A stretch of 64,000 nt of DNA from an uncultured archaeon (lineage in GTDB: Archaea > Aenigmatarchaeota > Aenigmatarchaeia > QMZP01 > JACQNV01), in NCBI GenBank assembly GCA_964631205.1, contig CAZVWU010000002.1:69031-133030 (forward strand), read 5' to 3'. The notes under the pieces were generated by a model, which was not told where the DNA came from, did no database searches, and saw nothing but the letters and a program-made list of their open reading frames with translations. Shown piece after piece: positions 21,414 to 62,795 of this stretch (its first letter is position 1; every line of letters begins with the position of its first letter). Both the position numbers and the translations under genes were made by a program.

Positions 21414-21693
21414 TATAACACTGTTATATTAATACCCCTTCACTTCGTCTGGAGAAATCATTTCTTTCTATTAAAATCGCTATACATAGGCGTGTTTTTG
21501 ATTAAAATTTTTCTTAAAAAGTTTACTTCATGTGAAATAGGCTTGCTTGGTTTAAAGTTCACATAGAAAGCCTTATAGAGGCTCTGTATAGCGGTTTTTC
21601 AATGTTCCACAGGAAATCATGGGGTGAAGTTCATTTCTTGAAGGGGAAGGTTCATGTGTATAGGCTAATCCTACATATATAACAATGTTATAT
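21414..21693. other. origin-like non-coding locus: two palindromes and inverted ORB-like elements flanking an AT-rich core
   Basis: Palindromes at 21414-21428 and 21678-21692. Minus-strand CTCCAGACGAAGTGAAGGGG at 21435-21454 and plus-strand TTCCACAGGAAATCATGGGGTG at 21605-21626. Nested inverted repeats at 21435-21442/21639-21646 and 21478-21486/21585-21593. The surrounding 416-nt gap has no convincing ORF. Confidence 0.4.
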
Positions 21694-21768
21694 TAGGTAA
21701 TGAAACTTAAATGCCCAATTCCAATAATTAATTATATGGATGTTAAGAAATTCTGCGAGGTGAGGCGA

Positions 21769-22440
21769 CTAGTATGTTGAAAGCATTCGAGGTTGCTGTT
21801 TCTCTAATAACATCTCTGGGTATGTCTTCATTATTAGGTCTGGTTCGCCTAATCCGAGCCTTTCCGTAAAGTCAAAAATAATTTTTTCAGCAGCTTTTCT
21901 TTCAAGCGTCCTTTGCTTTTTTTTCATTGAATTTGAGCCTACAACTTCCACTTCAAATTCAGTGAATTTGCCTAGTTCGTGAATGTCATCGATGCATATG
22001 TGAAGTTCGCCTACTTTTGGCGGCTTTTCATAAACTAGTTTCTCATTTACGACCCACAAATCGCTTCTTCTGCCAACCACTTCAACTACCGGCTGCATAA
22101 TGGAACGTCTGCTATCATACTCTTCTTGGTCTATCGGCCTCTGCAATTCAAATGCGTGGTTTCCATCGTCTCCATTATTGTTTACATATATTTTAATCGA
22201 CTCATAATGCCTCGGCTTTGTTGGCCTGCCTTGGCTGTCATATCCTTGGACCAGCCTTAGTCTCCTGCAGTCGCCGCCTGTTTCTTGATGAAAATAGAAA
22301 TAGGTATCTTTTCTGTCTGTCACCGGCAGTTTTATTGGTTTTTCGCCGAGAGCATTTGCGATTGCTGTGTATAAATTGCCTTTAGCCCTCCACTCAACTT
22401 CCAGCCCAGACTCGCTAAAACAGGCTTCTAAATCAACCAT
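21769..22440 (-). CDS. CYTH-domain protein (class IV adenylyl cyclase / triphosphatase fold), tentative
   Basis: N-terminal LEVEWRAK (ExExK-like), DTYFYF...RRLRLV, and C-terminal ELGKFTEFEVEV followed by a helix. Start moved to the ATG at 22440. Confidence 0.5.
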   Translation of the reverse strand: MVDLEACFSESGLEVEWRAKGNLYTAIANALGEKPIKLPVTDRKDTYFYFHQETGGDCRRLRLVQGYDSQGRPTKPRHYESIKIYVNNNGDDGNHAFELQRPIDQEEYDSRRSIMQPVVEVVGRRSDLWVVNEKLVYEKPPKVGELHICIDDIHELGKFTEFEVEVVGSNSMKKKQRTLERKAAEKIIFDFTERLGLGEPDLIMKTYPEMLLEKQQPRMLSTY

Positions 22441-22547
22441 AAAAAATATACTTGGAATGGTTTTAAATACTGCTGAAACGCCCTTCGACAATGATGCATA
22501 AACCCAGGTTTATGCTTTTAAAGACAGTTCAATATCCATACATAATT

Positions 22548-23354
22548 ATGCCAAGGATTGTTGTTTTGAAGATAGGCGGTTCTGTAATAACAAAAAAGGA
22601 TGAAAACTTGCTGGAGGCCAAAACAGATGTGATAAGGGGGGTAGCCAGAGCAATTAAAAAAGCAATGGAGGAAAGGGAATTTAAATTGGTTTTAGTCCAT
22701 GGCGCTGGCCCATTCGGGCATAAATTAGTTCAGGGATATGGGATAAATGACGGCTTGAAAACAAAAAAAGATGTAGAAGGCTTTGTAAAGACTTGCAGCG
22801 CAATTTCAGACCTTAACAAAATAGTTGTTGGTTGTTTTCTGTCAGAGGGGCTTTTAGCTATCGGGCTCCAGCCGACAGGTTTTGTTGTGCAGAAAAACAA
22901 AAAAATAGAAAAGTTTGGTTGTGAAATAATTGAGGCTTTGCTGGGATTGGAAGAAAATATAATTCCTGTTCTTTGTGGCGACATGGTTATTGATAAAAAA
23001 TTGAAAGCCAGCGTGCTTTCGGGGGATGCAATTGTCCCGTATCTTGCAAGCAAGATTGGGGCATCCCAAGTTTTGATGGGCACTGATGTGGACGGGATTT
23101 TTACTGCTGACCCAAAAAAGGATGCGGAAGCTAACTTTATAAAAGACGTCAATCTAGGGAATCTGGCCGAAGTCTTAAATAATTCAGAAGGCGCCAGCAC
23201 AGTTGATGTTACAGGCGGGATGAAAGGGAAGGTTATGGAAATAAAAGAAAATTTAAGCGGGATAGAGACAATTGTCTTTAACCTAAATATAGAAGGCAAT
23301 TTATATAAAATTCTTACAGGAAAAGAGGCCAAGAAAACAACAATAAATCTATAA
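22548..23354 (+). CDS. isopentenyl phosphate kinase (amino-acid kinase fold)
   Basis: VVLKIGGSVITKKD and VHGAGPFGH motifs, ~268 aa. Start moved to the ATG at 22548. Confidence 0.8.
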   Translation: MPRIVVLKIGGSVITKKDENLLEAKTDVIRGVARAIKKAMEEREFKLVLVHGAGPFGHKLVQGYGINDGLKTKKDVEGFVKTCSAISDLNKIVVGCFLSEGLLAIGLQPTGFVVQKNKKIEKFGCEIIEALLGLEENIIPVLCGDMVIDKKLKASVLSGDAIVPYLASKIGASQVLMGTDVDGIFTADPKKDAEANFIKDVNLGNLAEVLNNSEGASTVDVTGGMKGKVMEIKENLSGIETIVFNLNIEGNLYKILTGKEAKKTTINL

Positions 23355-24570
23355 ACCTGTTGCCAAACTAAAAGCAGGCGCTAAACGAGCAAAATAAAGG
23401 ATTGTTGGAAGAAGGAAAAAGCCCATCATATTGCTTCTCCTGATTTTCAGTGAATTTGCTAATATCCCGATAAAGACGCCGGTTGCGAGGATTAATAATC
23501 CAATAAAACCGCTAAACATGAACGCTAATGCCACCAACAAAACCAAAACCGAGATGTTGATTTTTTGGTAGTTGATGTTCTGGATTTTTCTTATGATGAG
23601 CCTGCCTGCCTTCAAAGTGACTATAGCGGCTATAAACGTTGCGACTAGGCCAACGCCCATTATCAGCATAAGGTCATAAAGTGTAGGTGTGGCAAGGATT
23701 TGTGAAATTGCTGCTGCAGCTCCACTTCTTGTTTTCTCAAGTGTGAAGAATGCGATGAATGTGAAGAATATGTTGGATACATTTATCCCGCCGAGAGCTG
23801 TGAGGAACTCCTTCGCTTTTGCCTTGAAAGTATTGGAGGCTATCACGCCTGCCTGTGAAGATCCTATACCAGGAAGTATGCCTACCAGAAGGCCTGCAAA
23901 CCAGCCAATGAATATGCCCTTGTAGCTTACATCAACTTCACGCGCCTCTGACTGTTTGGGAATTTCTATGCCCCCCCCCCCAGCTTAGGAGGATGCCGCT
24001 TAACCCAAACATACCTGTCAGGGCTGGGAAAATTGAGGTTGATGGAAAGCTTCCAAGCGAGATTGCCCCGAAAATTCCGGACAGCAGAAAAATCAGCGCT
24101 GCATAAAACATGCCTTTTCCTTTTTCTGAAATTATCATCCACAAGGCTACAAAAATCAAAAGGTAATGGATATAGGCGCTTAAATTATTGTAAAGGATTG
24201 GAAGGATCTGGAAAAGTAAAGGAAATGTTAGGATCGTGAGCAGCGCTGCTCCTACCCCGCCAATTGTCGTCAAGAAAAGGGCTTCATATGCCTTGCCCTC
24301 AAGCATCATTTTGTGGCCAGGCAAAACAGAAAGTTCTGTCCCTGCTTCAGGCGCACCGAACAAAATTGACTGGATGAATTCTGTAAAGATGTTCGTGATA
24401 GATAAAGAGACTATGAACGCAATAATCGAATATACTGGAAACCCTGACAGAAGTATTGGTGAAGACAAAATAATTGCAAGGATTGTGTTGGGGTGGATGC
24501 CGGGGATAAGGCCTGTCGCTGTGCCGACAACAACTCCTAAGAATATAAATAAAATTAGTTCGAAGAACAT
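23349..24570 (-). pseudogene. TctA/DUF112-family membrane transporter split by a +1 frameshift in a G11 tract
   Basis: ORFs 23938..24570 and 23349..23846 are collinear halves. Reading G10 instead of G11 gives ...LSWGGGIEIPKQSEAREVDVSYKGIFIGWFAGLLVGILPGIGSSQAGV... Total length is 3n+1. Confidence 0.65.
23971..23981 (-). repeat. G11 (C11 on plus strand) homopolymer at the TctA-like frameshift site
   Basis: Read directly as tctatgCCCCCCCCCCCagc. Confidence 0.95.
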
Positions 24571-24602
24571 TCAGTTACTGTATTGGGAAAATAAATAATA
24601 AA

Positions 24603-25688
24603 TCACTTAAATTTTTTCCTGACCTCTTCCATTATGGACTGGTAGCCTTTGCTGTATTCAAGCTCTTCTGGAATTAAGGTTGCTGGATGGACAAACCCCT
24701 GCTCACGCATAAATTCCGCTTTCTTCACGGCCTTCTGCCTGAAATAATCCCAGTCAGGCGTTTCGAACCCGTCTGTGAAGGCTGTGAACTTGCCTTCATG
24801 CACGCTGAAGAGCATTGCGCTTACAATTGGGATGCAGTAATTTACTGTTGCTTGGGTGTTCCTTTTTACAGGCATCAATGGCATGTGGTGGCTTCCGCGT
24901 GTGTCGCCAGCCACATAGTGGGCTGTCTTGAATACAGAGCATGCCTCTTCTGTTGCAGGGAAGTTTTTCTGGACCCTTATGATTGCGGCAGGGTCGTCTT
25001 TGCCTACATATGTTCCAGCAATATTGTGGAGCCTGTCTGTTGTTGCAACCAGTATTGGCTCGCCGTCTTTTGTCCAGACAGAATCAACAACATATCTGCC
25101 GGGGTACATTAAAATTGCAGCGATTTTAAAAATGTCTTCTGGCGTATGAAGCTCAGCTTTCTTATCCTCCATTACATCCATTACAACAAATTTCACGCCT
25201 TTTGTCAGATTAGGATTAACTATTAGCCCGGTATTTGCACTCGGCTCGCAAAACAACCTGTAAAACGGATAATTAAATGCCCCGGGCTCGGTTTTGTCTG
25301 CTGTAAGCAAAACAAAAGCTTCGTTTGGACGCTCCTCAAATTCCATTTCTGCAACACCGGGACCAAGACCTTTGACATTGCCTGAGAAAGAATCTTTCAA
25401 TAAATCCTGCCCTGCCCCATAAAGGCCTTGGGATTTCGCGACTTCTGTGCCTGCCTTGAAAGCGTCCCATGCAAGCTTGTGGATTTCCGGGTTTCCAACA
25501 CCCTTTTTGTGCGCCATTAAAATATGGATGTCATCGCCTGTATAACCGAGATAAGCATCGATAAGGAGCGTGCCGCCGTTTTTCCCTATGTGCTCCTTTA
25601 CTGAATTAAATAATTCCTCGCTTGGCTTGGTGTGGCCGCCTATTGACCCGACATCCGCTTTTATTGCGCTCAGTGTTATTTTTGGCAT
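24603..25688 (-). CDS. fbp: bifunctional fructose-1,6-bisphosphate aldolase/phosphatase (class V FBPase)
   Basis: MPKITLSAIKADVGSIGGHTKPS N-terminus and overall ~360 aa, characteristic of the archaeal FBPA/P. Confidence 0.9.
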   Translation of the reverse strand: MPKITLSAIKADVGSIGGHTKPSEELFNSVKEHIGKNGGTLLIDAYLGYTGDDIHILMAHKKGVGNPEIHKLAWDAFKAGTEVAKSQGLYGAGQDLLKDSFSGNVKGLGPGVAEMEFEERPNEAFVLLTADKTEPGAFNYPFYRLFCEPSANTGLIVNPNLTKGVKFVVMDVMEDKKAELHTPEDIFKIAAILMYPGRYVVDSVWTKDGEPILVATTDRLHNIAGTYVGKDDPAAIIRVQKNFPATEEACSVFKTAHYVAGDTRGSHHMPLMPVKRNTQATVNYCIPIVSAMLFSVHEGKFTAFTDGFETPDWDYFRQKAVKKAEFMREQGFVHPATLIPEELEYSKGYQSIMEEVRKKFK

Positions 25689-25746
25689 AAATAAATTGGA
25701 TGAAATTGATTTTCAAGCTTTAAATGTTTATACCTAATAGTCTGGT

Positions 25747-26597
25747 ATGAAAAAACACAAAAAGCAAAAGAAATTATTGCCTGCCATAATTTTGGTTTTG
25801 GTAGCATACAGTATTGCAGTAAGCTCTGTTTATACCATCACAAAAAACGAGCAGAAGCTGCCTGTTTACTGGGAAATTTCAGGGGTTATGTTGTCCCTAG
25901 CATACATGCTTCAAAAATTTCTTATCAAGTTGATATAGACAGGTTGGTTAGAGATGTTGATGTAGTGGCTCTGGAGGTAGATTTAAATGAAGTGTTGAAC
26001 AAAGCGGAAGGGTTGAACCTGACAGGCGAAAATTTGGAGAGGTCACTTTCTCTTGAAGCAATTAAATATTACAGGGATTTTTTTGGCGAAGCCGAGTGGG
26101 AGGTCATAAAAACGCTCAAGGCTGGAGTTGTAAGCAGTATCGTTGATTCGAGGCTTGCTGAGGAGCATGGACTCATAAACAAGATGGATGAGTTTGCATT
26201 TGGGCGGGCATTAACTTTGGATAAAAAAATTATTGGATTGGAAAATGCGAGTCTGCAGATTGATTTTTTGTTGGATAGTCCAGAGGATTCTATAAGGTCG
26301 CTGGAAGAGATTGCAGGAAACGAGACAGAGTACAGGAAATCGTTGGACGCCATCGAGACCATATACAAGAAAGGCGATCTGGAACTTATGAGGGCTTTAT
26401 ACAGATTGACTGCAAACCAGTCAATTGAAGCCCAGTATTCAATTAATGTAAGGGATCCAATTTTGCAGAACAGGAGCAAAGAGGTTCTCGAAAAAGAAAA
26501 AACTTTAATAATGGTCGGTTTCGGGCATGTACCCGGGATTATAGATGAATTGAAAAAAGAATTTCAAGTGAAAGAAATTAATTCTGTCAGGAAATAG
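25747..26597 (+). pseudogene. TraB/GumN-family protein with N-terminal TM, interrupted by a -1 frameshift at a G4 run (25882-25885)
   Basis: ORF 25747..25938 ends ...PVYWEISG. The frame of 25944..26597 upstream reads GYVVPSIHASKISYQVDIDRLVRDVDVVALEVD (GSxH-type TraB/GumN core). C-terminal MVGFGHVPG. Length is 3n-1. Confidence 0.6.
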
Positions 26598-27381: not shown

Positions 27382-27387
27382 GGTATA

Positions 27388-28110
27388 CTATTCTATCCTT
27401 TTCAGCCTTTCGATCAGCTCTTCTTGCCTTGAAAGTTTGCAGAGGGCAAGAGGGATATTCTCGTGCTCCGCAATCATTTTTGCAACTGGGTCTATTGGGT
27501 TTTGGAGACCGTGGAGAATAACAAGGCCAGGTTTCAGGTTTGTGAGCTTGATTGCTACTATTGGTGTCCTTCCAGTCGAGACTTTTGTGAAGATAAGGGC
27601 GCGCTGTGTTGTGCTGCCGTAGATTTTTGCAAGGTCTTGGAAAGACATTTCTGTTATTGCGCGGATCGAATCTATAACTGTGTAGCCGTAGATTTCCTTG
27701 TTGTGGTCGTTGTTGTGGATGAACTCGGATTCGGTAGCTTTGCAAAAATCTGTCACCCCAACCCCCCCAAAAAATTCTTTTATATCAATTATGCTGTTTT
27801 CTGGGTTTGGCTTGGTCGTGTTGCAGAAGCTTTTCAGAATCTCTGCGCCCCTTTTTTCATCAAAAGATATCAGGGCTTCTATGTAACGTTTGATTATTTT
27901 TATTCCTGGGGATTTCCTTCTGCCTGATTCATAATCACAGACAACAGAAGGCGAGATGCCGAGCTCCCTTGCAAGCTCGTTTTGGGAGATCTTAAAAGTT
28001 GTCCTCCATTTTTTGAAAACTGCCCACGGTTCATTTGATAATATAATTTCGCTGGCAATGGTTTTTGAGAGCCTTATCTTGACATTAAATTCGTCAGAAA
28101 TTGTATCCAT
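27388..28110 (-). CDS. XRE-type HTH transcriptional regulator with C-terminal domain
   Basis: ISQNELARELGISPSVVCDYESGRR is a classic XRE/Cro HTH; ~150 aa C-terminal domain of unknown role. Confidence 0.7.
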   Translation of the reverse strand: MDTISDEFNVKIRLSKTIASEIILSNEPWAVFKKWRTTFKISQNELARELGISPSVVCDYESGRRKSPGIKIIKRYIEALISFDEKRGAEILKSFCNTTKPNPENSIIDIKEFFGGVGVTDFCKATESEFIHNNDHNKEIYGYTVIDSIRAITEMSFQDLAKIYGSTTQRALIFTKVSTGRTPIVAIKLTNLKPGLVILHGLQNPIDPVAKMIAEHENIPLALCKLSRQEELIERLKRIE

Positions 28111-28187: not shown

Positions 28188-28862
28188 CTAATCAAAAAGC
28201 AATACCCTACTATCCGGTCTCAGGTATTTGTCTACACGATCTAAATTCTTTGCCAAAAGAGATACTGCTTCTCTATAGGCCTGTCGAATCTGTTTTTTCT
28301 GATCAGGATTCAAAGGGGTTTTTGAGTCGCATATTACTTGTTCGCTGCCTTCTTTAATACCTGCTACAAATCCGACGTCCGCTATAATTCCACGATCTTT
28401 TGCATTAGTTAAATCTAAACCGTCCGTATTATAGTCGCTTATTTTTATTCTAACATCTCTCTTGTAGGATCTTGAATTAACATTTAAAACGTCTTCAGAA
28501 TTTTCGTGTGTTAGCCAGAAATCAAACTCTGTGTCTTGGCACCTGTTTATTGCCTCAAGAACAAACCCATTCCCTTTAGTTCTCAAATAATCTGCAATTG
28601 CTTTGGCGCACTTTGATGTGAAATCTGTGGTTGTAGTTTCTGTGTCAAGACGTGTGGATCCGGGTTTTAATGACGAACCTCCATATCGTTGCTTTTGCTG
28701 TTCGTCTCCTGATTTGGTTTCCTGATTTAAAGTATCGACTTGTCTTTTATAGACCGGTTCTTTGCTCACACACCCACCAAACAACGGCAAAACTGTAGCA
28801 CCTGCTAATGTGAACGCCTGCGCCGTTCGCGCTAAATATGAATTGTTGGTTCTCATAACCAA
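28188..28862 (-). CDS. putative secreted lipoprotein
   Basis: N-terminal hydrophobic segment ending LFGGC (lipobox-like). No family recognised. Confidence 0.45.
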   Translation of the reverse strand: MVMRTNNSYLARTAQAFTLAGATVLPLFGGCVSKEPVYKRQVDTLNQETKSGDEQQKQRYGGSSLKPGSTRLDTETTTTDFTSKCAKAIADYLRTKGNGFVLEAINRCQDTEFDFWLTHENSEDVLNVNSRSYKRDVRIKISDYNTDGLDLTNAKDRGIIADVGFVAGIKEGSEQVICDSKTPLNPDQKKQIRQAYREAVSLLAKNLDRVDKYLRPDSRVLLFD

Positions 28863-28940: not shown

Positions 28941-29144
28941 ATATAACATTGTTATATAGTTATTTATTTTCCAGCGACACCCCCCCATTTCTAATGGAAA
29001 ATGCCTTTAAAACTAAAAGTAATTAATTAAATTATAACATTGTTATATTTTAAGTTGTTTGTTTTTAATTTATTTAATCTCCATATGAAATTGTGGGGTG
29101 TCCTACTAATATAACACTGTTATACACCTTAACTTCACATGGAG
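28941..29144. other. candidate replication origin (ORB-like inverted repeats, AT-rich unwinding region, three palindromes)
   Basis: Minus-strand TTCCATTAGAAATGGGGGGGTGTC at 28976-28999 and plus-strand CTCCATATGAAATTGTGGGGTGTC at 29079-29102. A ~78-nt stretch between them has only ~10 G/C. Palindromes at 28942-28956, 29033-29047 and 29110-29124. A weaker ORB-like element is at 29125-29144. Lies directly upstream of orc1/cdc6. Confidence 0.6.
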
Positions 29145-29206
29145 TTTTTAAGTTAAGAGAACATAATTTATTATCTTTTTATTTCTTATGGAACCCCAGG
29201 GAGCTT

Positions 29207-30406
29207 ATGGCTAAACAGCAAACTTTCCAAGACATCTTTTCGAATTATGAGCTTGCAAGCTTGTCTGTTTTTAAAAATAAAGACGTTTTAAGCCCGGATT
29301 TTATCCCAGAAGTCGCTGTCCACAGGGAAAAGCAAATAAAGCAGATAGCCTCAATCCTTGCCCCCTGCCTAAGGAACCTGAAAGTCTCCAACATCTTCCT
29401 TTTTGGCAAAACCGGCACTGGAAAAACAGTCTGCGTCAAGCAAGTCACCCAAGACCTTGAGAAACGCGCGAATAGGATAAAAATTATCTACATCAACTGC
29501 AAAATGAAAAGGGTCTCTGACACAGAATACCGCCTGCTCGCAGAACTTTGCCGTTCCTTCGGCAAGAAAATCCCGCCAACAGGCCTGCCGACAGATGAGA
29601 TCTACAGGATTTTTTACGAGTCAATTGAAGCAGAGAAAAAAAGCATAATTCTTGTGCTGGATGAAATAGACACCCTTGTAAAAAAAACAGGCGACGAGCT
29701 GCTCTACAACCTCACAAGAATCAACCAAGACCTTAAAAACTCAAAAATCTCAATAATTGGGATCTCAAACGATATCATGTTTATTGAAAATTTAGATCCG
29801 AGAGTGAAATCCTCGCTCTCTGAAGAAGAAATCCTTTTCCCGCCATACAACGCCCACCAGCTTCAGGACATCCTTACCCAAAGGACAGAGCAGGGCTTCA
29901 ATCCGTCTGCAGTTGAGCAGGGTGTGATAACAAAATGCGCAGCCCTTGCAGCACAGGAACACGGCGATGCGAGGAAAGCCCTTGACCTCCTGAGAATAGC
30001 CGCAGAACTCGCAGAAAGGGAAAACAAGCCAAAAGTCCTTTTGTCGCACGTGGATATAGCAGAAGAAAAGCTTGATCTTGACAAAACAGTTGAGATAGTT
30101 AAAACCCAGCCAAAGCAGTCGCTTGCTGTCCTTGCAGCCACAATAAGGCTTGTAGAAGCAGGAAGGAAAAACATCCAGACAGGTGACATTTTCGAGCTCT
30201 ACCAGCAGCTCTGCCCCAACGCCGGCCTAAAAAACCTCACACAAAGGAGAGTCTCCGACCTTATAGGGGAACTTGATATGCTTGGCATCCTGACGACAAA
30301 AGTCATCTCAAAAGGCCGCTACGGCAGGACCCGCGAGATCCGCCTCCTTTTAAGCAAGCCGGTTATTGAAAAGATAAAGAAAGTCCTTACTGAAAACTAC
30401 CTCTAA
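29207..30406 (+). CDS. cdc6: Orc1/Cdc6 replication initiator
   Basis: Walker A GKTGTGKT, Walker B LVLDEID, sensor regions and a C-terminal winged helix. Start moved to the ATG at 29207 because the upstream extension covers the ORB elements. Confidence 0.95.
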   Translation: MAKQQTFQDIFSNYELASLSVFKNKDVLSPDFIPEVAVHREKQIKQIASILAPCLRNLKVSNIFLFGKTGTGKTVCVKQVTQDLEKRANRIKIIYINCKMKRVSDTEYRLLAELCRSFGKKIPPTGLPTDEIYRIFYESIEAEKKSIILVLDEIDTLVKKTGDELLYNLTRINQDLKNSKISIIGISNDIMFIENLDPRVKSSLSEEEILFPPYNAHQLQDILTQRTEQGFNPSAVEQGVITKCAALAAQEHGDARKALDLLRIAAELAERENKPKVLLSHVDIAEEKLDLDKTVEIVKTQPKQSLAVLAATIRLVEAGRKNIQTGDIFELYQQLCPNAGLKNLTQRRVSDLIGELDMLGILTTKVISKGRYGRTREIRLLLSKPVIEKIKKVLTENYL

Positions 30407-30903: not shown

Positions 30904-31764
30904 ATGGAAAAATCCGAAATAGTGAATAAGTTTTTGCAGGAAGGCTTTTTATTATCACCAAAAATATTGGATAAGCTGACTGAAGAAAAAATAAGTCAGT
31001 TGCTTCCAGAAATCAAAACAAAAAATATTTTAGTTTTAACTGAATTGGATGAACCTGAAATAACTTTTACAATAAAAAAACAGGCAAAGCCAAAATCCGT
31101 GACAGTGAAAGACATAGCTGAATACTACAGCAAAAAATATTCCGCCATTAAAACCATCCTTTCAGCTAAACTCGACCCGATCTCAATAAACAACCTGAAA
31201 AACGGGAGCCAGCAGACAATAATAGGCCTAATCTCAGGAAGCGGCGCTGCCTTTTTTGCTGAGGATTCAACAGGAAAAATTGAATTGGTTTGCGACAAAC
31301 AAATGCAGCAAAATTCGATTCTGGGATTGGCAGGCCAGGTGAAAGAAAACAAATTTTTTGTTTCAGGCGTTTTTTATCCTGACATCCCTTTAGACAAAAA
31401 AATAAAAGAAATAGATTTTAAGCTGATATTTAGACTAGAAAAGGGCCAGCCGATAATTCTTGTAAACGGAAGAGAAATAAAGGATTTTCCAATGCCAACC
31501 ACAGCCTCAATTAAAAAAGGCCAAACAACCAATATTTTAGTCTACAAGCCAGAACAACCCTTAACCAAAAACCAGCTGGTAGAAGCCCTGAAATTAAGGT
31601 GCCTCCCGGAGCCCAAAATACCATCAGAAAATTATATAATCGAAGATGAGCCAGACCTGTTCTGGGTAATACAAAAGGACAGCTGGGTAGAAAATTATAA
31701 GGGGGTCAAAATAATCTCTGGCGAATCAGCTGAAATTGGCGCGGAACCGGGAAAATACATATAA
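30904..31764 (+). CDS. DP1 / polymerase B-subunit-like protein with OB fold and a reduced, catalytically dead phosphoesterase remnant
   Basis: DP1-like N-terminus (IVNKFLQEGFLLSPKILDKL). OB-fold segment IIGLISG..FFAEDSTGKIELV..ILGLAGQV..FFVSGVFYPDIPL. C-terminal NYIIEDEPDLFWVIQKDSW sits where DP1 has PDIF..GHxH. The 286-aa protein contains no histidine. Confidence 0.6.
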   Translation: MEKSEIVNKFLQEGFLLSPKILDKLTEEKISQLLPEIKTKNILVLTELDEPEITFTIKKQAKPKSVTVKDIAEYYSKKYSAIKTILSAKLDPISINNLKNGSQQTIIGLISGSGAAFFAEDSTGKIELVCDKQMQQNSILGLAGQVKENKFFVSGVFYPDIPLDKKIKEIDFKLIFRLEKGQPIILVNGREIKDFPMPTTASIKKGQTTNILVYKPEQPLTKNQLVEALKLRCLPEPKIPSENYIIEDEPDLFWVIQKDSWVENYKGVKIISGESAEIGAEPGKYI

Positions 31765-31999: not shown

Positions 32000-32701
32000 T
32001 CACTTCTTCTCTTTCTTCGTTTCTTCAGCAGATTTCATCTCAGCTTTAACCTTGTTCCCTTCGATCTCTACAATCCCATATTTCCCGTTAATCACAGGCC
32101 CCGGATAAAACAAAACAGTGCCGCCAAGCTTGTCTTCCCCAGCCCCTTCGTGTATGTGCGCTGAAATGCAAAGCGCGGGCTTTTTAGCCAAAATAAACTC
32201 CCTTATGGATTTGGAGCCGACATGCTCGCCTGACAAAATCTTGTCAAGCTTAGTGTCCTTTGGCGGATTGTGCACAACCAAAACAAATTTTCCTGCTTCC
32301 AGTTTTTTAGAATTATAATCCAAGCCCTCCTTAACCTCTGCCTCTGTTGGCTCAAAAACTGTCCTGAACGGCGTCTCAGCTCCCCCAAAACCAATAAACT
32401 CGATGCCAGAAACCATCCTTGCTTTCGAATGGATATTGATCCCATACTCCTCAAATAAATCCACAACCTCATAAGGGTCATGGTTTCCGGGAATGCAGAG
32501 CAAAGGTTTTTTCAGCAAAAGCAGTTTCTGGACAACCATATCCGCCACATCAACCTGCTCGAGATCCAGCGGGCTGTCAAAACAGTCTGTAAGGTTTCCA
32601 GCACAAACAACCAAATCAACCCTTTCCTTTCCAGCCTTCTCCAGAACCTCATCCAGCTTGTCCAGCCTACTGTGTATGTCAGCCAGCACCAATATTCGCA
32701 T
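32000..32701 (-). CDS. calcineurin-like metallophosphoesterase
   Basis: ILVLADIHS, GNLTD, IPGNHD, VVHNPP and SAHIHEG motifs. Confidence 0.8.
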   Translation of the reverse strand: MRILVLADIHSRLDKLDEVLEKAGKERVDLVVCAGNLTDCFDSPLDLEQVDVADMVVQKLLLLKKPLLCIPGNHDPYEVVDLFEEYGINIHSKARMVSGIEFIGFGGAETPFRTVFEPTEAEVKEGLDYNSKKLEAGKFVLVVHNPPKDTKLDKILSGEHVGSKSIREFILAKKPALCISAHIHEGAGEDKLGGTVLFYPGPVINGKYGIVEIEGNKVKAEMKSAEETKKEKK

Positions 32702-35299: not shown

Positions 35300-35314
35300 C
35301 ATAACAGTGTTATA
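35300..35314. promoter_or_regulatory. palindrome copy 6 (cATAACAgTGTTATA) in a divergent promoter region
   Basis: Read directly. Lies between the starts at 35251 (-) and 35379 (+). Confidence 0.6.
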
Positions 35315-35378: not shown

Positions 35379-36359
35379 ATGGATAATGACACAAGGCTCT
35401 TGGAAATGGCACTCAGAACAGAACCCACAGACATTAAAACAGCCTTGCGTTTCTCCAACGCTTATCTAAGGAGCGGCGAGTTAAGGGAAGCTTACCTGAC
35501 ATTGCTGGAAGCAGATGCAGTGTTTCCAGACATCCCTGAAGTGAAAGCGTTGCTAAACCAAATCAATCTCACAGACTTCGCAAATTACGAAATGGTTTCA
35601 GGCAGAAATTATAACGACGGCCTCCAAACTTTGAGAGCTGGAGACACTTCGCTTCAACCATATGTTATAATAGATGGCGAAAAGCTTGCAAGGCCTCTAG
35701 ACCTATCGGAGATCGCTAAATCAAGGCTGGAAGAATATGCTCTAATAGATGACCAAAGGCTTGCAAGGCCTCTAGATGGCCTATGGGAGATCTTTCTATG
35801 GAAGATCCTTAAATTAAGGCTGGAAGACCCATGGGAGATCGGTAAATCAAGGCTGACAAACCCAATCCCGTCAGGTGAACATCAGAAGTCCTGTGCAGCA
35901 ATAGCTTATAGAGCAGAAGACCCTGATAATTTCAAGTTCATTCGAAGATCAAAAGAACTCATAATACTTCAAAGAAACCCCAGCAGATACCTCCGACTCG
36001 AACCAGGCCAATACGAAAATATCGCCGGAACAGTTCTGAACAGAAAAAGGGCAAAATACAGGAAACCTTTAGAAGAAAAGGAAGTATTGGATCACGAGGG
36101 CTGGAACGCCATTATTCCGGATCCGGAATTGTTAAAAGATTATGTAAAACTAGCATTCGCCGAGCTTAAAATGAACCCCATACACGCAGACACGGAGAAA
36201 GGAATGACTTTCGATATAAGGTCGCAAGAAGAAATATCAGAAATAACTGAAGATCGGCTGCACGCTCTGGACATGTACTACCTCAGCTTCGGCTCTGGTA
36301 CGAGCGACAGACACGACCTTACCAGCAGTCCGCAGTTCGCCCGAGTAGTCCCAAAGTAA
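35379..36359 (+). CDS. hypothetical protein with TPR-like N-terminus and internal tandem repeats
   Basis: Long ORF with repeated LARPLD...EI(A/G)KSRLE peptide units. Confidence 0.5.
   Translation: MDNDTRLLEMALRTEPTDIKTALRFSNAYLRSGELREAYLTLLEADAVFPDIPEVKALLNQINLTDFANYEMVSGRNYNDGLQTLRAGDTSLQPYVIIDGEKLARPLDLSEIAKSRLEEYALIDDQRLARPLDGLWEIFLWKILKLRLEDPWEIGKSRLTNPIPSGEHQKSCAAIAYRAEDPDNFKFIRRSKELIILQRNPSRYLRLEPGQYENIAGTVLNRKRAKYRKPLEEKEVLDHEGWNAIIPDPELLKDYVKLAFAELKMNPIHADTEKGMTFDIRSQEEISEITEDRLHALDMYYLSFGSGTSDRHDLTSSPQFARVVPK
35668..35850 (+). repeat. imperfect ~75-90 bp tandem repeats inside a CDS
   Basis: gcttgcaaggcctctaga...gagatc...aaatcaaggctggaaga recurs 2.5 times. Confidence 0.7.
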
Positions 36360-58170: not shown

Positions 58171-59220
58171 ATGTCAAAATTTTCTGCGCCAGGTAATGTG
58201 TTCTTTTTAGGCGAGCATTCAATAGTCTATGGAAGGCCGGCTATTGTAGCTGCTGCTAATTTCAGGACGCACGCCCACGTAAAGAAAAGGGAAGACAATA
58301 AAATTGTTCTTAATTCTGAAAACTATGGAAGTTTTGAGCACACCTTAGAAGATTTAAAAAATAAAGAGTGGGTTGTTAAACTCGCAACACCAACAGAGCA
58401 GGCAAAAAATGATTACAAGCCTGATGGGAAAATAATGGAAGTTCTTGCTCCAGCTAAAGATTTGATAGGAAGACTGGCACAAATTCATGATTTAAAAAAT
58501 GGGTTTGAATTGAATTTAAAATCAGAAATTCCAAAGGAATCTGGTGGAATGAGCTCGTCTACAGCTTTCTTGTCTTCTGTCTTGGGGGCTTTAAATCACG
58601 AATTCGAATTGGGTATAGACCACCAGAATTTTTTTGATGTGCTTCTTCCATTCCAAATAAAAATCCATGGAGGAGCCGCTTCAGGAGCTGAAATAACTTC
58701 AAGCTCCCTAGGCGGCTATAACTGGGTAAAAAGAGATTTAACAAAAACACCACCTGTTTTGGAAAGAAAAAATCTGGGGAAGCAAGATTTCAATTTAGTT
58801 ATTGGAAATACAGGTGTAGCTGGATTAACAGCAGAGACAGTTCCATATGTCAGAAGCGGCTTTAATGGGGACAATTCTTCTTATAACGCGGTTTTTGACA
58901 GGATAGCAGAGCTTGTTTCAGCAGCTGAAAAAGCAATTAAGTCAGGGGATGCAAAATTATTAGGGCAATTAATGGATGAAGACCATGAACTTTTGGCAAG
59001 GGATTTAGGCGTCTCCCACCCAAAATTAAACAAGCTTGTTGATACTGCCAGAAAAGCTGGAGCGTATGGTGCAAAGCTTTCTGGTGGAGGGAAGGGCGGT
59101 GTAATTGTTGCTTTGGTAAATAAAGACTCACAGGAAAAGGTTGCAAAAGCAATACAGGCAGCAGGCGGTCATGCTTATCTGACAACTGTTGGCGGGCACG
59201 GTTTGCAAAAACACGACTAA
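58171..59220 (+). CDS. mvk: mevalonate kinase (GHMP kinase, paralog B)
   Basis: SAPGNVFFLGEHSIVYGRPAI, GGMSSSTA and KLSGGGKGG motifs. Confidence 0.75.
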   Translation: MSKFSAPGNVFFLGEHSIVYGRPAIVAAANFRTHAHVKKREDNKIVLNSENYGSFEHTLEDLKNKEWVVKLATPTEQAKNDYKPDGKIMEVLAPAKDLIGRLAQIHDLKNGFELNLKSEIPKESGGMSSSTAFLSSVLGALNHEFELGIDHQNFFDVLLPFQIKIHGGAASGAEITSSSLGGYNWVKRDLTKTPPVLERKNLGKQDFNLVIGNTGVAGLTAETVPYVRSGFNGDNSSYNAVFDRIAELVSAAEKAIKSGDAKLLGQLMDEDHELLARDLGVSHPKLNKLVDTARKAGAYGAKLSGGGKGGVIVALVNKDSQEKVAKAIQAAGGHAYLTTVGGHGLQKHD

Positions 59221-59639
59221 GACATAACCTGGAAATCAATATCACTCACAGCACCCTTTCTTCTCACACCTAATTGCTCCAGACAGTAAACAACTCTCTG
59301 TATAATATCCTTGTCCTTTTCGAGCTCCTGCCTATTCTTTAATACCTCTATAGCAATTTCCCTGTAAACACCTTTTAGATTCCTGCCAATTTCGAGTATT
59401 ATATGAGTACAGCTCTGCCTAATCTTTTTATCCCCGGTATCAAGCTTGTTAATAAGAAAATCAAAACCTTCTCTTCCAGCTGCCGTGAAAATCGCGAATA
59501 CCATATAATTAACTCTCCTAACCCTTTCTGCGAACTGCTCATCTATAGTACCCAAGGCGTTCATTATCTCTACATACCTATCCAACGATTCGCACTGTTG
59601 AAACTGTCCAACCAGCGAATCGAAATTTTCTTTTCCCAT
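59217..59639 (-). CDS. hypothetical helical protein (140 aa)
   Basis: ORF only. Confidence 0.4.
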   Translation of the reverse strand: MGKENFDSLVGQFQQCESLDRYVEIMNALGTIDEQFAERVRRVNYMVFAIFTAAGREGFDFLINKLDTGDKKIRQSCTHIILEIGRNLKGVYREIAIEVLKNRQELEKDKDIIQRVVYCLEQLGVRRKGAVSDIDFQVMS

Positions 59640-59783
59640 AGCATAAAGTGACGTGCGCTAACGAATTCTCTGCGCTGGACATGTTAGCACAACATCACTA
59701 CTTATACATGATAATGCAATTTATTAACTTTTGTTGTCCATAAAGGACTACAACTTTATAAATTCAAAATACAATTGTAAGAT

Positions 59784-60515
59784 ATGGACAAAGAAGAAGT
59801 CTTAAAGCTGTTCGGTTTGGATGAATATGAGATCAAGGTTTATCTCGCCCTTTTGGCATCCGGTTCTGCCAAAGTAAACCAGATAGCAAAAAAGCTTGGC
59901 ATGCCAAGAACAACGGTTTACAGGATCCTAGATTACTTAATACTAAAGGGGCTTGTAAGCTATGTAATAAAATCAGGCATAAAACACTTCGAGACAGCAG
60001 ATCCTAAAAACTTACTTAGTATCTTAAAAGAGAAGCAGAAATATATCGAGGACATATTACCGGAACTTGAAGGCATGAGGGCTTCTTTGAAAGAAAAGCC
60101 GGAAATAGAAGTTTACGAAGGGAAAGAAGGGATAAAATCCATAATGGACGACTTGATAAATGAGGAGAAGACTATATCTGCGTTCTCATCCACCAAAGAT
60201 ATTTTCAACTTACTTCAATATTATACCCCCAACTTTATCAAAAGACGTGTTAAATTTGGAATACACATCAAACTAATCACAGAGAAAACAGAACAAACAA
60301 AAAAAGAACTGAAAGCAAAAGACAGGGTCGAGCTAAGAGAAACAAGATTTATACCCAAAATAGGCCAAATACCGAACACAATATATATCTATGGAAACAA
60401 AGTGGCAATTTTAAACACCGATATAAAAAATCCTCAAGGCATACTGATCCAAAATAAAAATTTCGCAGAAACCCAAAAACTCCTATTCGATTTTATTTGG
60501 GATAAAATCAGTTAA
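59784..60515 (+). CDS. TrmB-family transcriptional regulator
   Basis: LGLDEYEIKVYLALLASGSAKVNQIAKKLGMPRTTVYRILDYLILKGLV winged-helix N-terminus. Confidence 0.85.
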   Translation: MDKEEVLKLFGLDEYEIKVYLALLASGSAKVNQIAKKLGMPRTTVYRILDYLILKGLVSYVIKSGIKHFETADPKNLLSILKEKQKYIEDILPELEGMRASLKEKPEIEVYEGKEGIKSIMDDLINEEKTISAFSSTKDIFNLLQYYTPNFIKRRVKFGIHIKLITEKTEQTKKELKAKDRVELRETRFIPKIGQIPNTIYIYGNKVAILNTDIKNPQGILIQNKNFAETQKLLFDFIWDKIS

Positions 60516-60558
60516 AATATGCCTTTTTAAATCTACCTGAGAAATCCCTTTATTTACT

Positions 60559-61674
60559 ATGCTAAAAGTCTCTGCGCCCGGGAAACTCTTTTTGACAGGC
60601 GAATGGGCTGTTTTGGAGGTTGGAAATCCGGGGATTGTAACAGCAGTAGATAAAAGAGTGTTTGTCGAGCTGGAGGAAGCTGATAGAATTACTCTGGATT
60701 TACCTGAGTTTAATATGGAAAATTTACAAGCGGATTTTGATGGGAGAATTTTGTCATGGTCAAGGCAGATTACTGATAAAGAGAAAACAGACCTGATTTT
60801 TATAAAAGGCGCAATTGAAACAACCCTCCAATATCTGGGAAGCGGCAAAAAATTCAGAATTAAAAGTTATGGCGGAGACACCCAGATGGAGATAAACGGC
60901 CAGAAAAAGAAAATAGGATTTGGCTCCTCTGCAGCTGCGGTGGTGGCAACGGTCGCCGGTTTATTGAATTTTCACGGGTATGACATAAAAAATAGGCAGG
61001 TAAAGGACACTATTTATAAACTCTCAACAATTGCGCATTTTTTTGCACAAGGGAAAGTTGGCTCTGCTTTTGATGTGGCAGCTTCAACCTACGGCGGAAT
61101 GTTTGTTTACAAAAGGTTTGATCCGAAATGGCTCGCAGAAAAACTTAATTCAGGATCTTCTGTAAAGCAAGCTGTGGAAGAAAAGTGGCCTGGATTTGAA
61201 GTCGAAGAATTAACTGTTCCAGAAGACTTTAATCTTCTTGTGGGCTGGACAAAAGATTCAGCATCCACGTCTGCCATGGTAAAGCAGATGGATTCGTTCA
61301 AAACCGGAAAACCAGAAGAGTATAAAAAATGTTATGATAATATCGCAAACCTAGTAAGAGAACTTATACCAGAGTGGAAGAATTTTAATAAAGAAGCTTT
61401 TGTTGAAATCCTAAAACAAAACCAAAATCATCTAAGAGAACTTGGCCAACTTTCTGGCGTAAACATAGAAACACCAGAGCTGAAAAAAATGGCTGAGATC
61501 GCAAACGCAAATGGAGCTGCTGGAAAGCTTTCTGGAGCAGGTGGAGGGGATTGCGGCATAGCTGTATGCTTTGATTCTGAAACAGCCAGCAAAATCAGGG
61601 AAGAATGGACAAAAGCTGGGATATACCCAATAGATACCGCATTGGACAAAGATGGTGTAAGAATAGAAAACTGA
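60559..61674 (+). CDS. phosphomevalonate kinase-like GHMP kinase (ERG8 type)
   Basis: SAPGKLFLTGEWAVLEVGNPGIVTAVD, GFGSSAAAVVA and KLSGAGGGDCG motifs. Confidence 0.7.
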   Translation: MLKVSAPGKLFLTGEWAVLEVGNPGIVTAVDKRVFVELEEADRITLDLPEFNMENLQADFDGRILSWSRQITDKEKTDLIFIKGAIETTLQYLGSGKKFRIKSYGGDTQMEINGQKKKIGFGSSAAAVVATVAGLLNFHGYDIKNRQVKDTIYKLSTIAHFFAQGKVGSAFDVAASTYGGMFVYKRFDPKWLAEKLNSGSSVKQAVEEKWPGFEVEELTVPEDFNLLVGWTKDSASTSAMVKQMDSFKTGKPEEYKKCYDNIANLVRELIPEWKNFNKEAFVEILKQNQNHLRELGQLSGVNIETPELKKMAEIANANGAAGKLSGAGGGDCGIAVCFDSETASKIREEWTKAGIYPIDTALDKDGVRIEN

Positions 61675-61732
61675 GTCAAAAACTGCTCTGGTCAATAGAT
61701 GTTTTTGACTGTTGTATTCCTGTGTGGAATAC
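61675..61732. terminator. two perfect hairpins between convergent genes
   Basis: GTCAAAAAC...GTTTTTGAC (61675-61709) and GTATTCC-tgtgt-GGAATAC (61714-61732). Confidence 0.35.
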
Positions 61733-61745
61733 CAGAATTTAATCT

Positions 61746-62084
61746 TCAGTATAAAAGAGGCAGCCTCTTGGCTGTCATCCCTTTGTTGTAATGTGGGCCC
61801 CCGACATCCCCTAATTCCGATAAAATAGTGAGTTCTGATTTATTCAATTTAAGGAGATATGTATTATTTTTCATCTGCTTTAGATCCTTTAGTATCCTGG
61901 GCGAGTTTATTTTTCTTTTTAAGGAGCTTGCATTCAACATCTCGCTGTAGAAATGGAGCCTGTCAAAGTAGTATTCTTTGTGGTTGCCCCCCCTATAATT
62001 TTTTCCGAAGCTCTCCAAACTGTTAATCACATGAGCAACCTCAAGATAAAATTTATGGAGCTTTCTGCAAGCATGAAGAAGCAT
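61746..62084 (-). CDS. hypothetical protein (112 aa)
   Basis: ORF only; weak support. Confidence 0.3.
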   Translation of the reverse strand: MLLHACRKLHKFYLEVAHVINSLESFGKNYRGGNHKEYYFDRLHFYSEMLNASSLKRKINSPRILKDLKQMKNNTYLLKLNKSELTILSELGDVGGPHYNKGMTAKRLPLLY

Positions 62085-62115
62085 TTTAAAGACTTGGTTG
62101 AACTACTATTTAAAA

Positions 62116-62274
62116 TTATACCAGCAAGAACTTGAATGTGATTTCCAAGATAATTATTGCAACAGAGCCGATTGCCACATGCTCAGGCTTTAGTTTTATC
62201 GAATCTTCAGCCTCTTCATAATATCTCATCAGCCCAGCACTGCTCTGCGGCATATACATCTTATCTTTTGGCAT
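62116..62274 (-). CDS. secG: preprotein translocase subunit Sec61beta (52 aa; below the ORF-track cutoff)
   Basis: My translation is MPKDKMYMPQSSAGLMRYYEEAEDSIKLKPEHVAIGSVAIIILEITFKFLLV. It has the SSAGLxRYY motif plus a C-terminal TM, as in archaeal Sec61beta. Confidence 0.7.
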   Translation of the reverse strand: MPKDKMYMPQSSAGLMRYYEEAEDSIKLKPEHVAIGSVAIIILEITFKFLLV

Positions 62275-62339
62275 ATCAACTTAACTTATAATAAAGCTAT
62301 TTAAGCATATAAATAAATTGTGTGCAGTGCATAGCCCAC

Positions 62340-62640
62340 TTTTTGTACATGCTAGCCTTTTCCGGCAGATGTCTTATGTGCTTTTTGCATGTTGGTAGAT
62401 TTGTCTTAGCCCTGTAACCAGGTTGCACGCCACACGCTGATATATTTCACTTACAATTGCTTTCGAAGTTCTGCATTTCTGCATCATGACTCAAGCAGTA
62501 TAATCTTTTCTGCTACCAGCGAATCTTCTCAGAGTTACGCCTCACGGCATTGTGTTGGGACTTCCCACGTGAATGGAGCTTCCTCATCTAGCCTTTTACG
62601 AGAGGCTTCCGCCTTCTGCAAAAGTCTACAGTACCCAAAA
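62340..62640 (-). ncRNA. candidate structured ncRNA with RNase P RNA-like motifs (boundaries uncertain)
   Basis: In minus-strand sense: GGGAAGUCC (62557-62565), ACAGGGCUAAG (62404-62414), UGUAAGUGAAA (62444-62454), and a hairpin AGCCU-n8-AGGCU (62589-62606). AGUCC can pair with GGGCU as in P4. No plausible CDS in the region. Confidence 0.3.
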
Positions 62641-62774
62641 GTGTGACCTTCTGGAACTGATTTCAACGAACTACCTGCACTGCTCACTAAAAGAGTGATA
62701 GTTTGATAGTTTATATTGGTTTTCCATAGACACAAATATACATCTAACATCCTATCGGTGAGCAGGTACAAAGC

Positions 62775-62795
62775 CTTATATAACAGTGTTATATA
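62775..62795. promoter_or_regulatory. palindrome copy 7, extended to 21 nt (TTATATAACAGTGTTATATAA); possible promoter/operator for the downstream minus-strand non-coding region
   Basis: Read directly. Both halves contain TATA-like sequence. Confidence 0.5.

Follow-up and report, generated by a model that had tools for sequence, protein, structure and literature searches.

A conserved 15-base palindrome at the midpoint of predicted DPANN replication origins: a candidate ucm-like element that may also serve as a transcriptional operator

Background

A 64-kb stretch of archaeal DNA (the window, which in what follows means the whole stretch that was analysed) carries seven copies of a 15-base palindrome with the consensus TATAACAnTGTTATA, and the question raised by this locus is what such an element does beside an orc1/cdc6 initiator gene and its origin recognition boxes (ORBs). 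An initial annotation, made from the letters of the window, had described the copies as intergenic, had likened them to the site of a dimeric DNA-binding protein, and had named Orc1/Cdc6, an XRE-type regulator and a TrmB-like protein as candidate binders. Our analysis suggests, with a probability that we put at roughly 0.58, that the palindrome belongs to the core of DPANN replication origins as a site for a bound protein, much as the ucm element does in Sulfolobus, and that it doubles as a transcriptional operator. The initial annotation had missed what the comparison of related loci makes most likely, namely that the palindrome forms part of the conserved core of the origin, placed midway between inverted ORBs.

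The window represents a stretch of housekeeping genes on the chromosome of an Aenigmarchaeota-like DPANN archaeon. Among them are PolB, orc1, Hjc, SecDF, genes for the mevalonate pathway and for glycosylation, RpoL, TFS and ribosomal protein L10e; the 3' part of a 23S rRNA gene is found at the end of the window. Named homologues of its Orc1 at about 59-66% identity are mostly labelled Aenigmarchaeota, two of them Nanoarchaeota, and one named match at 79% is labelled only 'archaeon'.

Apart from the ORBs, we know of one auxiliary archaeal origin element with a known binder that has been described, ucm/UBP in the Sulfolobales, and DPANN archaea are to our knowledge not yet genetically manipulable. 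The ucm element of Sulfolobus/Saccharolobus lies midway between ORB2 and ORB3, is required for the firing of oriC1 and is bound by UBP (Dhanaraju et al. 2025, PMC12141716). UBP contacts MCM's N-terminal domains, occupies more than 300 mostly intergenic sites and is restricted, as reported, to Sulfolobales and Desulfurococcales; the same paper raises the question of whether comparable origin factors exist in further archaeal lineages (PMC12141716).

Results and discussion

Seven near-perfect copies in the window

A pattern search of the window for TATAACANTGTTATA at up to one mismatch returned exactly seven matches, against an expectation of 0.03 from dinucleotide-preserving shuffles, and seven copies were reached in none of 100 shuffles. 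The seven-copy observation of the initial annotation therefore stands, and within the window the motif is far more frequent than composition predicts. The starts of the copies are given in Table 1; copy 6 is the one with a mismatch (its first base is C). The 9-nt core AACANTGTT occurs within the 64 kb only at the seven palindromes, where 1.5 occurrences would be expected by chance. Since the window holds no copies with two mismatches, and its four copies with three mismatches match the chance value of 3.78, the palindromes are either near-perfect or absent. The half-site TGTTATA is found 17 times outside the palindromes, which is about the chance level, and most of these stray half-sites fall within coding sequence when set against the gene calls. 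A further 10 kb adjoining the window contains no copy, and away from the origins copies are sparse, with 2 in about 66 kb.

Gene calls make about 90% of the window coding, and none of the seven palindromes lies inside a credible coding sequence once the true gene starts are used, as had been claimed from the sequence at the outset. The start of orc1 is 29207, with an identical 399-aa product in sequence records from a 133-kb metagenomic contig, ENA ERZ27284378, and that of the alpha gene of ADP-forming acetyl-CoA synthetase (ACD) is 35251, which gives 457 aa compared with 453-465 aa in relatives. The two open reading frames (ORFs) that overlap copies 1 and 7 (21387..21566 and 62535..62840) are not credible; the second of them overlaps an RNase P RNA gene. 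Two details of copy 7 were checked: its coordinates are 62779-62793 and not 62778-62792, an error of one base, and its reported extension to 21 nt is correct, in the form of a perfect palindrome.

Position relative to the origin recognition boxes

Scanning the window with the canonical ORB pattern TCCAYANGAAATNNNGGGGTG at up to 3 mismatches gave exactly four matches, against 0.36 expected, and these form two inverted pairs, A and B, which lie 7.5 kb apart. Five of the palindromes frame or enter the two ORB loci, in agreement with the initial annotation. The clearest placement is that of copy 4, which has its centre at 29040, the midpoint of pair B being at 29039. Copies 3 and 5 sit just outside the same pair, copy 3 about 60 nt beyond the TTTATAAA box of a 224-aa gene on the minus strand. 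Pair B adjoins orc1, and the second of the two mini-ORB cores found between copy 5 and orc1 overlaps the likely promoter and transcription start region of that gene. The cumulative GC skew of the window turns at about 28 kb. The palindrome was also examined for the hallmark of an ORB: the dyad TCCAnnnGAAA and the G-string are both absent from it, and none of the four ORB matches overlaps a palindrome.

At pair A, copy 1 lies 4 nt from the G-string end of the minus-strand ORB and 62-76 nt 5' of the ATG of a 166-aa gene (20852..21352, minus strand). Copy 2 sits 77 nt 3' of the stop codon of 21769..22491 (minus strand) and is therefore in no gene's promoter. As a separate observation, the spacer of pair A (window 21454-21605; L002 3985-4110; L004; L006; loci in other genomes and contigs carry our own numbers) contains a second inverted repeat, AAATCG(C/A)TATACATAG ... 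CTATGTATA(C)CGATTT, which is kept in all four genomes, and pair A may mark another origin, one whose central element is not the palindrome.

Conservation across related origins

We compared the regions upstream of orc1 in a set made up of 80 loci around XRE homologues (39-81% identity), four orc1-linked matches from a scan of species genomes and one further locus, and counted the 21 non-redundant regions for which at least 150 nt were available. The palindrome is present in 21/21 of these regions at up to two mismatches and in 19/21 at up to one. They cover Orc1 identities of 51-100% and GC contents of 31-58%, and one of them, L063, belongs to Candidatus Nanoanaerosalina of the phylum Nanohalarchaeota. 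Outside the window's clade there is usually a single copy, located in the AT-rich spacer between the minus-strand and the plus-strand ORB.

A simple and crude scan scored the ORBs on both sides in 12 loci with 60-136-nt spacers, and in 10 of these the palindrome is at most 6 nt from the midpoint; these central copies sit in 60-104-nt spacers. The gap from the minus-strand ORB to the palindrome is steady at 34-44 nt in ten loci. Corrected for lineage, with the window's clade counted as one of seven central lineages next to the clearly off-centre L024 and L152, the palindrome is central in 7/9, for which our own arithmetic, taking a chance of about 0.2 per locus, gives about 3e-4.

In the closest relatives, L002 (a 330-kb JGI contig), L004 and L006 (GCA_053529675.1), Orc1 is 76-79% identical by BLAST (77-80% in the homologue listing) and the whole arrangement is kept. 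In the region that separates orc1 from the divergent XRE gene, palindromes and ORBs are interspersed, with two palindromes in L004 and three in the other two. A further copy directly follows the XRE stop codon, and the locus orthologous to ORB pair A, at a distance of about 5.5 kb, has two to four, among them the orthologues of copy 1. One of the copies at that locus is a conserved palindrome inside the 3' coding part of TctA (L002 4643, L004 5494, L006 7170), which the window lacks. The motif tracks orc1 and not the XRE gene: in every XRE locus that holds orc1 the palindrome is upstream of orc1, whatever the place or orientation of the XRE gene, and no palindrome lies near the XRE gene in those of the 80 fetched loci that have no orc1 nearby.

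When the flanks are included, the conserved form extends to aTATAACAnTGTTATAt. Its arms are nearly invariant across lineages and its centre base is free (A10/C7/G5/T9). The initial impression that the site looks like that of a dimeric protein gains from this comparison, since the sequence of the arms is kept among lineages in which Orc1 is only 51-66% identical. A site for a two-fold symmetric protein is the best reading because the arms are conserved rather than co-varying and the hairpin that they could form is weak, and a perfect palindrome of 15-17 bp implies a dimeric binder.

The palindrome and the promoters of the window

Upstream regions of 39 window genes show a box of the TTTAAA/TTTATAA type 22-35 nt before the ATG. 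Because these TATA-like boxes are only 22-35 nt from the start codons, the spacing implies leaderless or very short-leader mRNAs for most genes of this organism. The 224-aa gene, XRE, orc1, ACD and the TPR gene each have such a box, with the palindromes 20-70 nt further upstream, and it follows that the palindrome is not an ordinary promoter. In distant lineages, orc1 likewise has its own TTTAAA box plus an ORB beside the ATG. The suggestion of the initial annotation that the TATA-like ends of the palindrome act as TATA boxes of the flanking genes is not borne out, as those genes use boxes of their own. A generic core-promoter identity was rejected, since the TGTTATA half-site is not enriched at other promoters and the genes carry separate boxes.

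Copy 4 occupies the middle of the origin, at a distance from the TATA-like boxes of the genes on either side. Copy 6 is located, as had been noted, between the divergent ACD alpha gene and 35379..36359, which is the TPR gene; it is flanked by their start codons (35251, minus strand, and 35379, plus strand) and is upstream of the TATA-like boxes of both. Copy 7 is located upstream of the RNase P RNA gene, at a distance of about 160 nt, and downstream of the 3' end of the 23S rRNA, at about 200 nt. The position typical of a repressor site, between the TATA box and the start codon, was not seen for any of the seven window copies.

The same site at iron-sulfur and cysteine genes

A scan of species genomes (one genome per species) for the exact 15-mer matched at least 120 blocks, of which 35 of those listed are archaeal. 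Four of the archaeal blocks listed are orc1 origins. Iron-sulfur (Fe-S) cluster or cysteine genes make up a second context. Such genes lie within 2.5 kb of the site in 7/35 archaeal and 1/85 bacterial blocks listed (Fisher p = 7e-4), and among the matches listed these blocks come from Bathyarchaeota, Theionarchaea, Nitrososphaerales and Aenigmarchaeota (Table 1). The commonest families among the 139 neighbouring proteins include Aminotran_5 (5), Cys_Met_Meta_PP (3), PALP (3), CBS (3) and SUFBD (2). No recurrent transcription factor emerged beside the Fe-S sites, MarR accounting for 2/139 neighbours and no Rrf2 or SufR gene adjoining.

Two arrangements were seen. In L030 (sufC), L038 (sufB) and L066 (iscU) the palindrome is between a TTTAAA/TTTATAA box and the ATG, and in L048 and L098 its left arm overlaps a TATA-like box. 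In both, the palindrome covers the core promoter, where repressors classically act in archaea. Both contexts occur within metagenome-assembled genomes (MAGs) of Aenigmarchaeota, the Fe-S context in L030 and L038 and the origin context in L024 and L036. The link between the two contexts rests on the identity of the site's sequence, and the economical reading is that one DNA-binding specificity would serve both. We regard the site as a candidate pan-archaeal Fe-S/cysteine operator; the literature searched contained no archaeal regulator of Fe-S/cysteine genes with this motif. The bacterial operators of IscR, CymR and SufR offer a likeness, as they are palindromes that overlap the core promoters of isc, suf and cys genes, comparable to the position between TATA box and ATG at the archaeal Fe-S/cysteine genes. 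The sequence of the palindrome is presumably unrelated to the boxes of these three regulators.

Table 1. Features of the window, and exact 15-mer matches upstream of Fe-S/cysteine genes in other loci
Feature	Position	Strand	Description
Palindrome copy 1	21414..21428	no strand	TATAACACTGTTATA; outer left flank of ORB pair A
ORB, left member of pair A	21433..21453	-	3 mismatches to TCCAYANGAAATNNNGGGGTG; conserved in 4 genomes
ORB, right member of pair A	21606..21626	+	TCCACAGGAAATCATGGGGTG; 0 mismatches; conserved in 4 genomes
Palindrome copy 2	21678..21692	no strand	outer right flank of ORB pair A
XRE-type protein	27388..28110	-	Cro/C1 helix-turn-helix (HTH_3) and DRTGG-like C-terminal domain; best candidate binder, unproven
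Palindrome copy 3	28942..28956	no strand	outer left flank of ORB pair B; orthologous copies in relatives
ORB, left member of pair B (orc1-adjacent)	28978..28998	-	1 mismatch
Palindrome copy 4	29033..29047	no strand	origin-centre copy; position kept in related origins
ORB, right member of pair B	29080..29100	+	TCCATATGAAATTGTGGGGTG; 0 mismatches
Palindrome copy 5	29110..29124	no strand	between ORB(+) and mini-ORB(-); 90 nt before orc1 ATG
Two mini-ORB cores	29133-29143 and 29182-29192	-	between copy 5 and orc1
orc1/cdc6 initiator gene	29207..30406	+	399 aa
Palindrome copy 6	35300..35314	no strand	CATAACAGTGTTATA; between divergent ACD alpha and TPR genes
RNase P RNA gene	62323..62620	-	RF00373, 55.5 bits, E 1.4e-14, full model length; below gathering score 84
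Palindrome copy 7	62779..62793	no strand	inside perfect 21-nt palindrome 62776-62796
Exact 15-mer, L009			directly upstream of cysteine desulfurase gene (iscS)
Exact 15-mer, L030			at divergent sufCBD and iscS-like promoter
Exact 15-mer, L038			directly upstream of sufB-sufD
Exact 15-mer, L045			directly upstream of nifU
Exact 15-mer, L048 and L098			directly upstream of cysK-like genes
Exact 15-mer, L066			directly upstream of iscU-iscS operon

A model for the origin copies and its weak points

The model that we favour is the following. The extended site aTATAACAnTGTTATAt would be recognised by a sequence-specific, probably homodimeric protein, conserved across a number of archaeal phyla. In the Aenigmarchaeota and at least one Nanohaloarchaeote it would be built into the orc1-linked origin, at or near the midpoint of the AT-rich spacer, which by analogy with Sulfolobus is where ORB-bound Orc1 would deliver the MCM helicase. 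The lineage of the window would have added extra copies outside the ORB pair, and a second ORB pair would be bracketed by two more. A protein bound between two Orc1/MCM loading sites would most likely modulate origin firing by licensing, bridging or blocking, in parallel to ucm/UBP of oriC1. The same protein is probably also a transcription factor. In other archaea its site at Fe-S-cluster/cysteine genes, placed after the TATA box and before the start codon, would be an operator of the repressor type, and in the window it would act on the divergent ACD and TPR promoters and on the RNase P RNA gene from sites upstream of them.

The closest known system is ucm, and the palindrome would work like ucm without being a member of that family. 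Both are short non-ORB motifs about midway between inverted ORBs, in an AT-rich spacer next to orc1, and both are found again at additional origin-like loci and elsewhere, mostly between genes (here copies 6 and 7, the copy after the XRE gene and the Fe-S/cysteine promoters). They differ in that ucm, TTATACAAAC, is non-palindromic and is bound by a UBP monomer, whereas the element described here is a perfect palindrome of 15-17 bp, in copy number, which is 1-4 per origin here, and probably in the identity of the binder. A search of the literature for the motif string returned only an unrelated KdgR box and primer sequences, and no description of the element was found in the literature searched.

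Bacterial origins provide a wider parallel. In the accessory sites of oriC (IHF, Fis, SeqA, CtrA and Spo0A boxes), sites of gene regulators other than the initiator lie among the initiator boxes and tie firing to the state of the cell. These differ from the present case in the domain of life, in the initiator (DnaA versus Orc1), in the loading of the helicase on melted versus duplex DNA, and in having no sequence relation to the palindrome. Two of them, IHF and Fis, are taken up in the ucm paper (PMC12141716). The Xer/dif site, which has 11-bp arms, a 6-8-bp spacer and one copy per replicon near the terminus, was rejected as a match, the palindrome having 7-bp arms, a 1-nt centre and seven copies, at the origin.

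Several points weigh against the model of an origin element with a second role as operator. At pair A both palindromes are outside the ORB pair and not central, and therefore a single model of a spacer between two MCMs leaves some copies unaccounted for. By the crude ORB scan, the palindromes of L024, L152 and L133 are displaced from the midpoint by 20-40 nt. The origin function of the ORB loci is itself deduced from the ORBs, the adjacency of orc1 and the GC-skew turn. The archaeal share of the exact matches, 35/120 among the blocks listed, is not normalisable to genome numbers. Finally, the origin and operator roles could be carried out by different proteins in different lineages.

The finding sharply defines a candidate origin element for DPANN archaea, a palindrome of 15-17 bp at the ORB-pair midpoint that is kept in every origin examined, down to about 50% Orc1 identity. 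It could be used as bait for finding its binder and as a marker that improves origin prediction in lineages represented by MAGs only, and it would offer a testable link between replication initiation and an Fe-S/cysteine metabolic regulon.

Candidate binding proteins

The three binders proposed by the initial annotation fared differently. We consider the XRE-type protein the best candidate, in spite of its failing a test for autoregulation; nothing was found that supports the TrmB-like protein; and Orc1 is unlikely because the ORB sites are separate from the palindrome and of a different form.

The XRE gene is a syntenic neighbour of the origin across the Aenigmarchaeota, and its family is also found in Bathyarchaeota, a phylum with Fe-S-linked copies of the palindrome. 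In its AlphaFold model (predicted local distance difference test, pLDDT, 81) the C-terminal domain matches DRTGG domains, for example those of AF1212 and the regulatory insert of CBS-pyrophosphatase. The recognition helix, SPSV(I/V)(S/C)DYEsGRR, is almost invariant among homologues at 40-100% identity, and the helix-turn-helix domain resembles the C proteins and 434 Cro in fold. Operators of the Cro/C1 (XRE) class, as in phage 434 and the C proteins of restriction-modification systems, resemble the palindrome in being palindromes of about 14-19 bp that are read by HTH_3 dimers. The XRE gene shows no sign of the autoregulation common to this class, with two exceptions: loci in which its upstream region is the origin itself, and L212, in which a perfect palindrome lies 43 nt before the XRE ATG. 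Autoregulation was rejected: among XRE loci with usable upstream sequence only 3 matches (up to 3 mismatches) fall in the -200..+10 interval, and all are shared with a divergent orc1 origin. An Fe-S ligand in the XRE protein was rejected as well, the single well-kept cysteine, C123, not being conserved in the Bathyarchaeota homologues.

An Hjc gene adjoins the XRE gene in 7 XRE loci from metagenomes (L130-L133, L140, L142, L143), divergently by our reading of the match coordinates, and in L212 Hjc is directly upstream of XRE on the same strand. COG1395 (PAB2104) combines an N-terminal PD-(D/E)XK Hjc-like domain with HTH_3 and a C-terminal domain (PMC1189080). The window XRE protein has HTH_3 and a DRTGG-like C-terminal domain and no N-terminal nuclease domain. 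By analogy, the XRE/Hjc pair may be reminiscent of a split version of the Hjc-like-HTH architecture of COG1395.

As regards a homologue of UBP, five small uncharacterised window proteins (queries clipped by one codon, which has no bearing here) gave no sequence match to UBP in the PDB. One gene of no recognisable family, with a 224-aa product, lies between XRE and the origin at 28188-28862 (minus strand) and was seen in the window genome only. In L002, L004 and L006 the XRE gene is directly divergent from orc1, and the 224-aa gene looks like a lineage-specific insertion beside the origin.

A more specific scenario, which we consider rather doubtful, joins these strands. In it, an ancestral Fe-S/cysteine repressor would have been wired into the centre of oriC in the Aenigmarchaeota and related DPANN, so that helicase loading or escape would be gated by Fe-S/sulfur (or nucleotide) status, and the regulator would be the XRE-DRTGG protein, maybe as a split relative of COG1395.

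Alternative explanations

The alternative that survives best, which we nevertheless judge unlikely, is that the palindrome is purely a transcriptional operator for orc1, its divergent neighbour (XRE or the 224-aa gene) and a small regulon, its proximity to the ORBs being a by-product of a shared intergenic region. It agrees with the fact that orc1 always adjoins a palindrome, with the outer copies of close relatives, whose distance is 37-44 nt to the start codon of XRE and 68-73 nt to that of orc1, with the promoter association of the same 15-mer at Fe-S/cysteine genes, and with the placement of copies 6 and 7 near promoters. Against it speaks that the conserved copy keeps to the ORB-pair midpoint and not to a set distance from the orc1 ATG, which varies across loci from 52 to 242 nt, and that ORBs and a separate TTTAAA box lie between the palindrome and orc1. 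Pair A, moreover, has no orc1 and yet carries two to four copies in four genomes, and copy 2 is downstream of a stop codon.

It is improbable that the palindrome is a structural element, that is, a cruciform or hairpins that form upon melting and start unwinding or priming with no dedicated binder. The AT-rich spacer is the expected site of melting, and in L152 a symmetric variant, TATTACAcTGTAATA, changes both arms and keeps the pairing. However, the sequence of the arms is conserved across phyla instead of co-varying, changes in one arm that break the pairing are common (TGTAATA, in 6 instances), the hairpin amounts to only -1.7 kcal/mol with z about -1 to -2, and the copies at Fe-S promoters are left unexplained.

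Back-to-back TATA boxes, forming a bidirectional core promoter for TBP/TFB that could for example direct transcription into the origin, are in our view quite improbable. This explanation would account for the TATA-like outer bases, for the arm that overlaps or abuts a TATA box at some Fe-S promoters (L030, L048, L098), and for L044, where the palindrome is centred about 24 nt before an apparent tRNA gene. It is contradicted by the generic boxes, which are TTTAAA/TTTATAA at -22 to -35 and do not contain the TGTTATA half-site, by the presence of a separate box at each gene beside a palindrome, and by the invariant ACAnTGT core with its fixed 1-nt centre, which corresponds to no requirement of TBP or of the B recognition element (BRE).

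Very improbable, too, is the explanation that Orc1/Cdc6 itself, as a dimer or with a partner, reads the palindrome as a second kind of origin site. The strict co-occurrence of the palindrome with orc1 and ORBs in DPANN loci would fit, and some archaeal Orc1 paralogues are described as transcription regulators (PMC9738581). Against this, canonical ORBs with dyad and G-string are separately present and the palindrome has neither, and the copies at Fe-S promoters, which occur in phyla whose origin contexts are unrelated, point to a classical transcription factor.

Chance, or the remnant of a mobile element (ends of miniature inverted-repeat transposable elements, or integration sites), has a practically negligible probability: five of the seven copies do lie within 7.7 kb, but the shuffle expectation is 0.03, orthologous copies occupy the same places in genomes with Orc1 51-80% identical, which refutes it, and there are no flanking direct repeats or transposase genes.

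Other occurrences of the palindrome

In L098, six copies at up to 2 mismatches occur in 8 kb. An extended tandem form, TGTTATAACAnTGTTATAACA, was found in four blocks, L058 (3300-3330), L087 (4310-4345), L032 and L042. It directly adjoins the start codons of related genes in two of them, L058 and L087; the gene of L058 matches NTP_transf_2 (Pfam), and that of L087 has no Pfam match and an N-terminus that appears AbrB-like by eye only. The tandem form may be a separate autoregulated module built on the same half-site. In L044 (Bathyarchaeota BA2), the palindrome at 5067-5081 precedes the apparent tRNA gene (GCCGGGGTGGCCGAGTGGT...) at the position of a TATA box.

Three viral contigs of IMG/VR carry tandem arrays of the palindrome: L208 at 57-183, L209 at 92-168, and L210 at 18-82 and 3312-3363. 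L208, a small phage that has a PolB of the protein-primed type, carries three repeats of 56 bp at its end, and L209 has three copies 31 nt apart beside a lysin gene. By gene content L208 and L209 resemble bacterial phages. No homologues of window proteins were found on the three contigs, which were left out of the comparison for this reason. The arrays are probably unrelated phage operators or terminal repeats.

Other features of the window

The initial annotation had placed one palindrome beside an 'ORF-poor' region at 62.3-62.8 kb. Copy 7 is there, and the emptiness of the region is explained by an RNase P RNA gene that had been missed and that occupies it. This may be a divergent DPANN RNase P RNA of the sort that standard annotation would miss. 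The gene follows the 23S rRNA gene instead of a 5S rRNA gene, and no 5S rRNA was detected downstream of the 23S 3' end (62990, minus strand; interval 62621-62990), even at a permissive E-value.

TctA is split in the window at 23349-24570 (minus strand), with 23938..24570 covering profile positions 1-209 and 23349..23846 covering 275-422, and a 91-nt gap between the two. In relatives, TctA is a single gene of 403-404 aa, and the split version may be a pseudogene or an assembly frameshift.

A conserved protein of 286-304 aa always follows orc1 (window 30904-31764, plus strand), and in relatives its gene overlaps orc1 by 4 nt. It has a weak match to the OB region of the small subunit of PolD, DP1 (6knb, E 0.8). 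A stand-alone Metallophos gene is always near (window 32000-32701, minus strand), and the two may together be a split DP1-like B-subunit.

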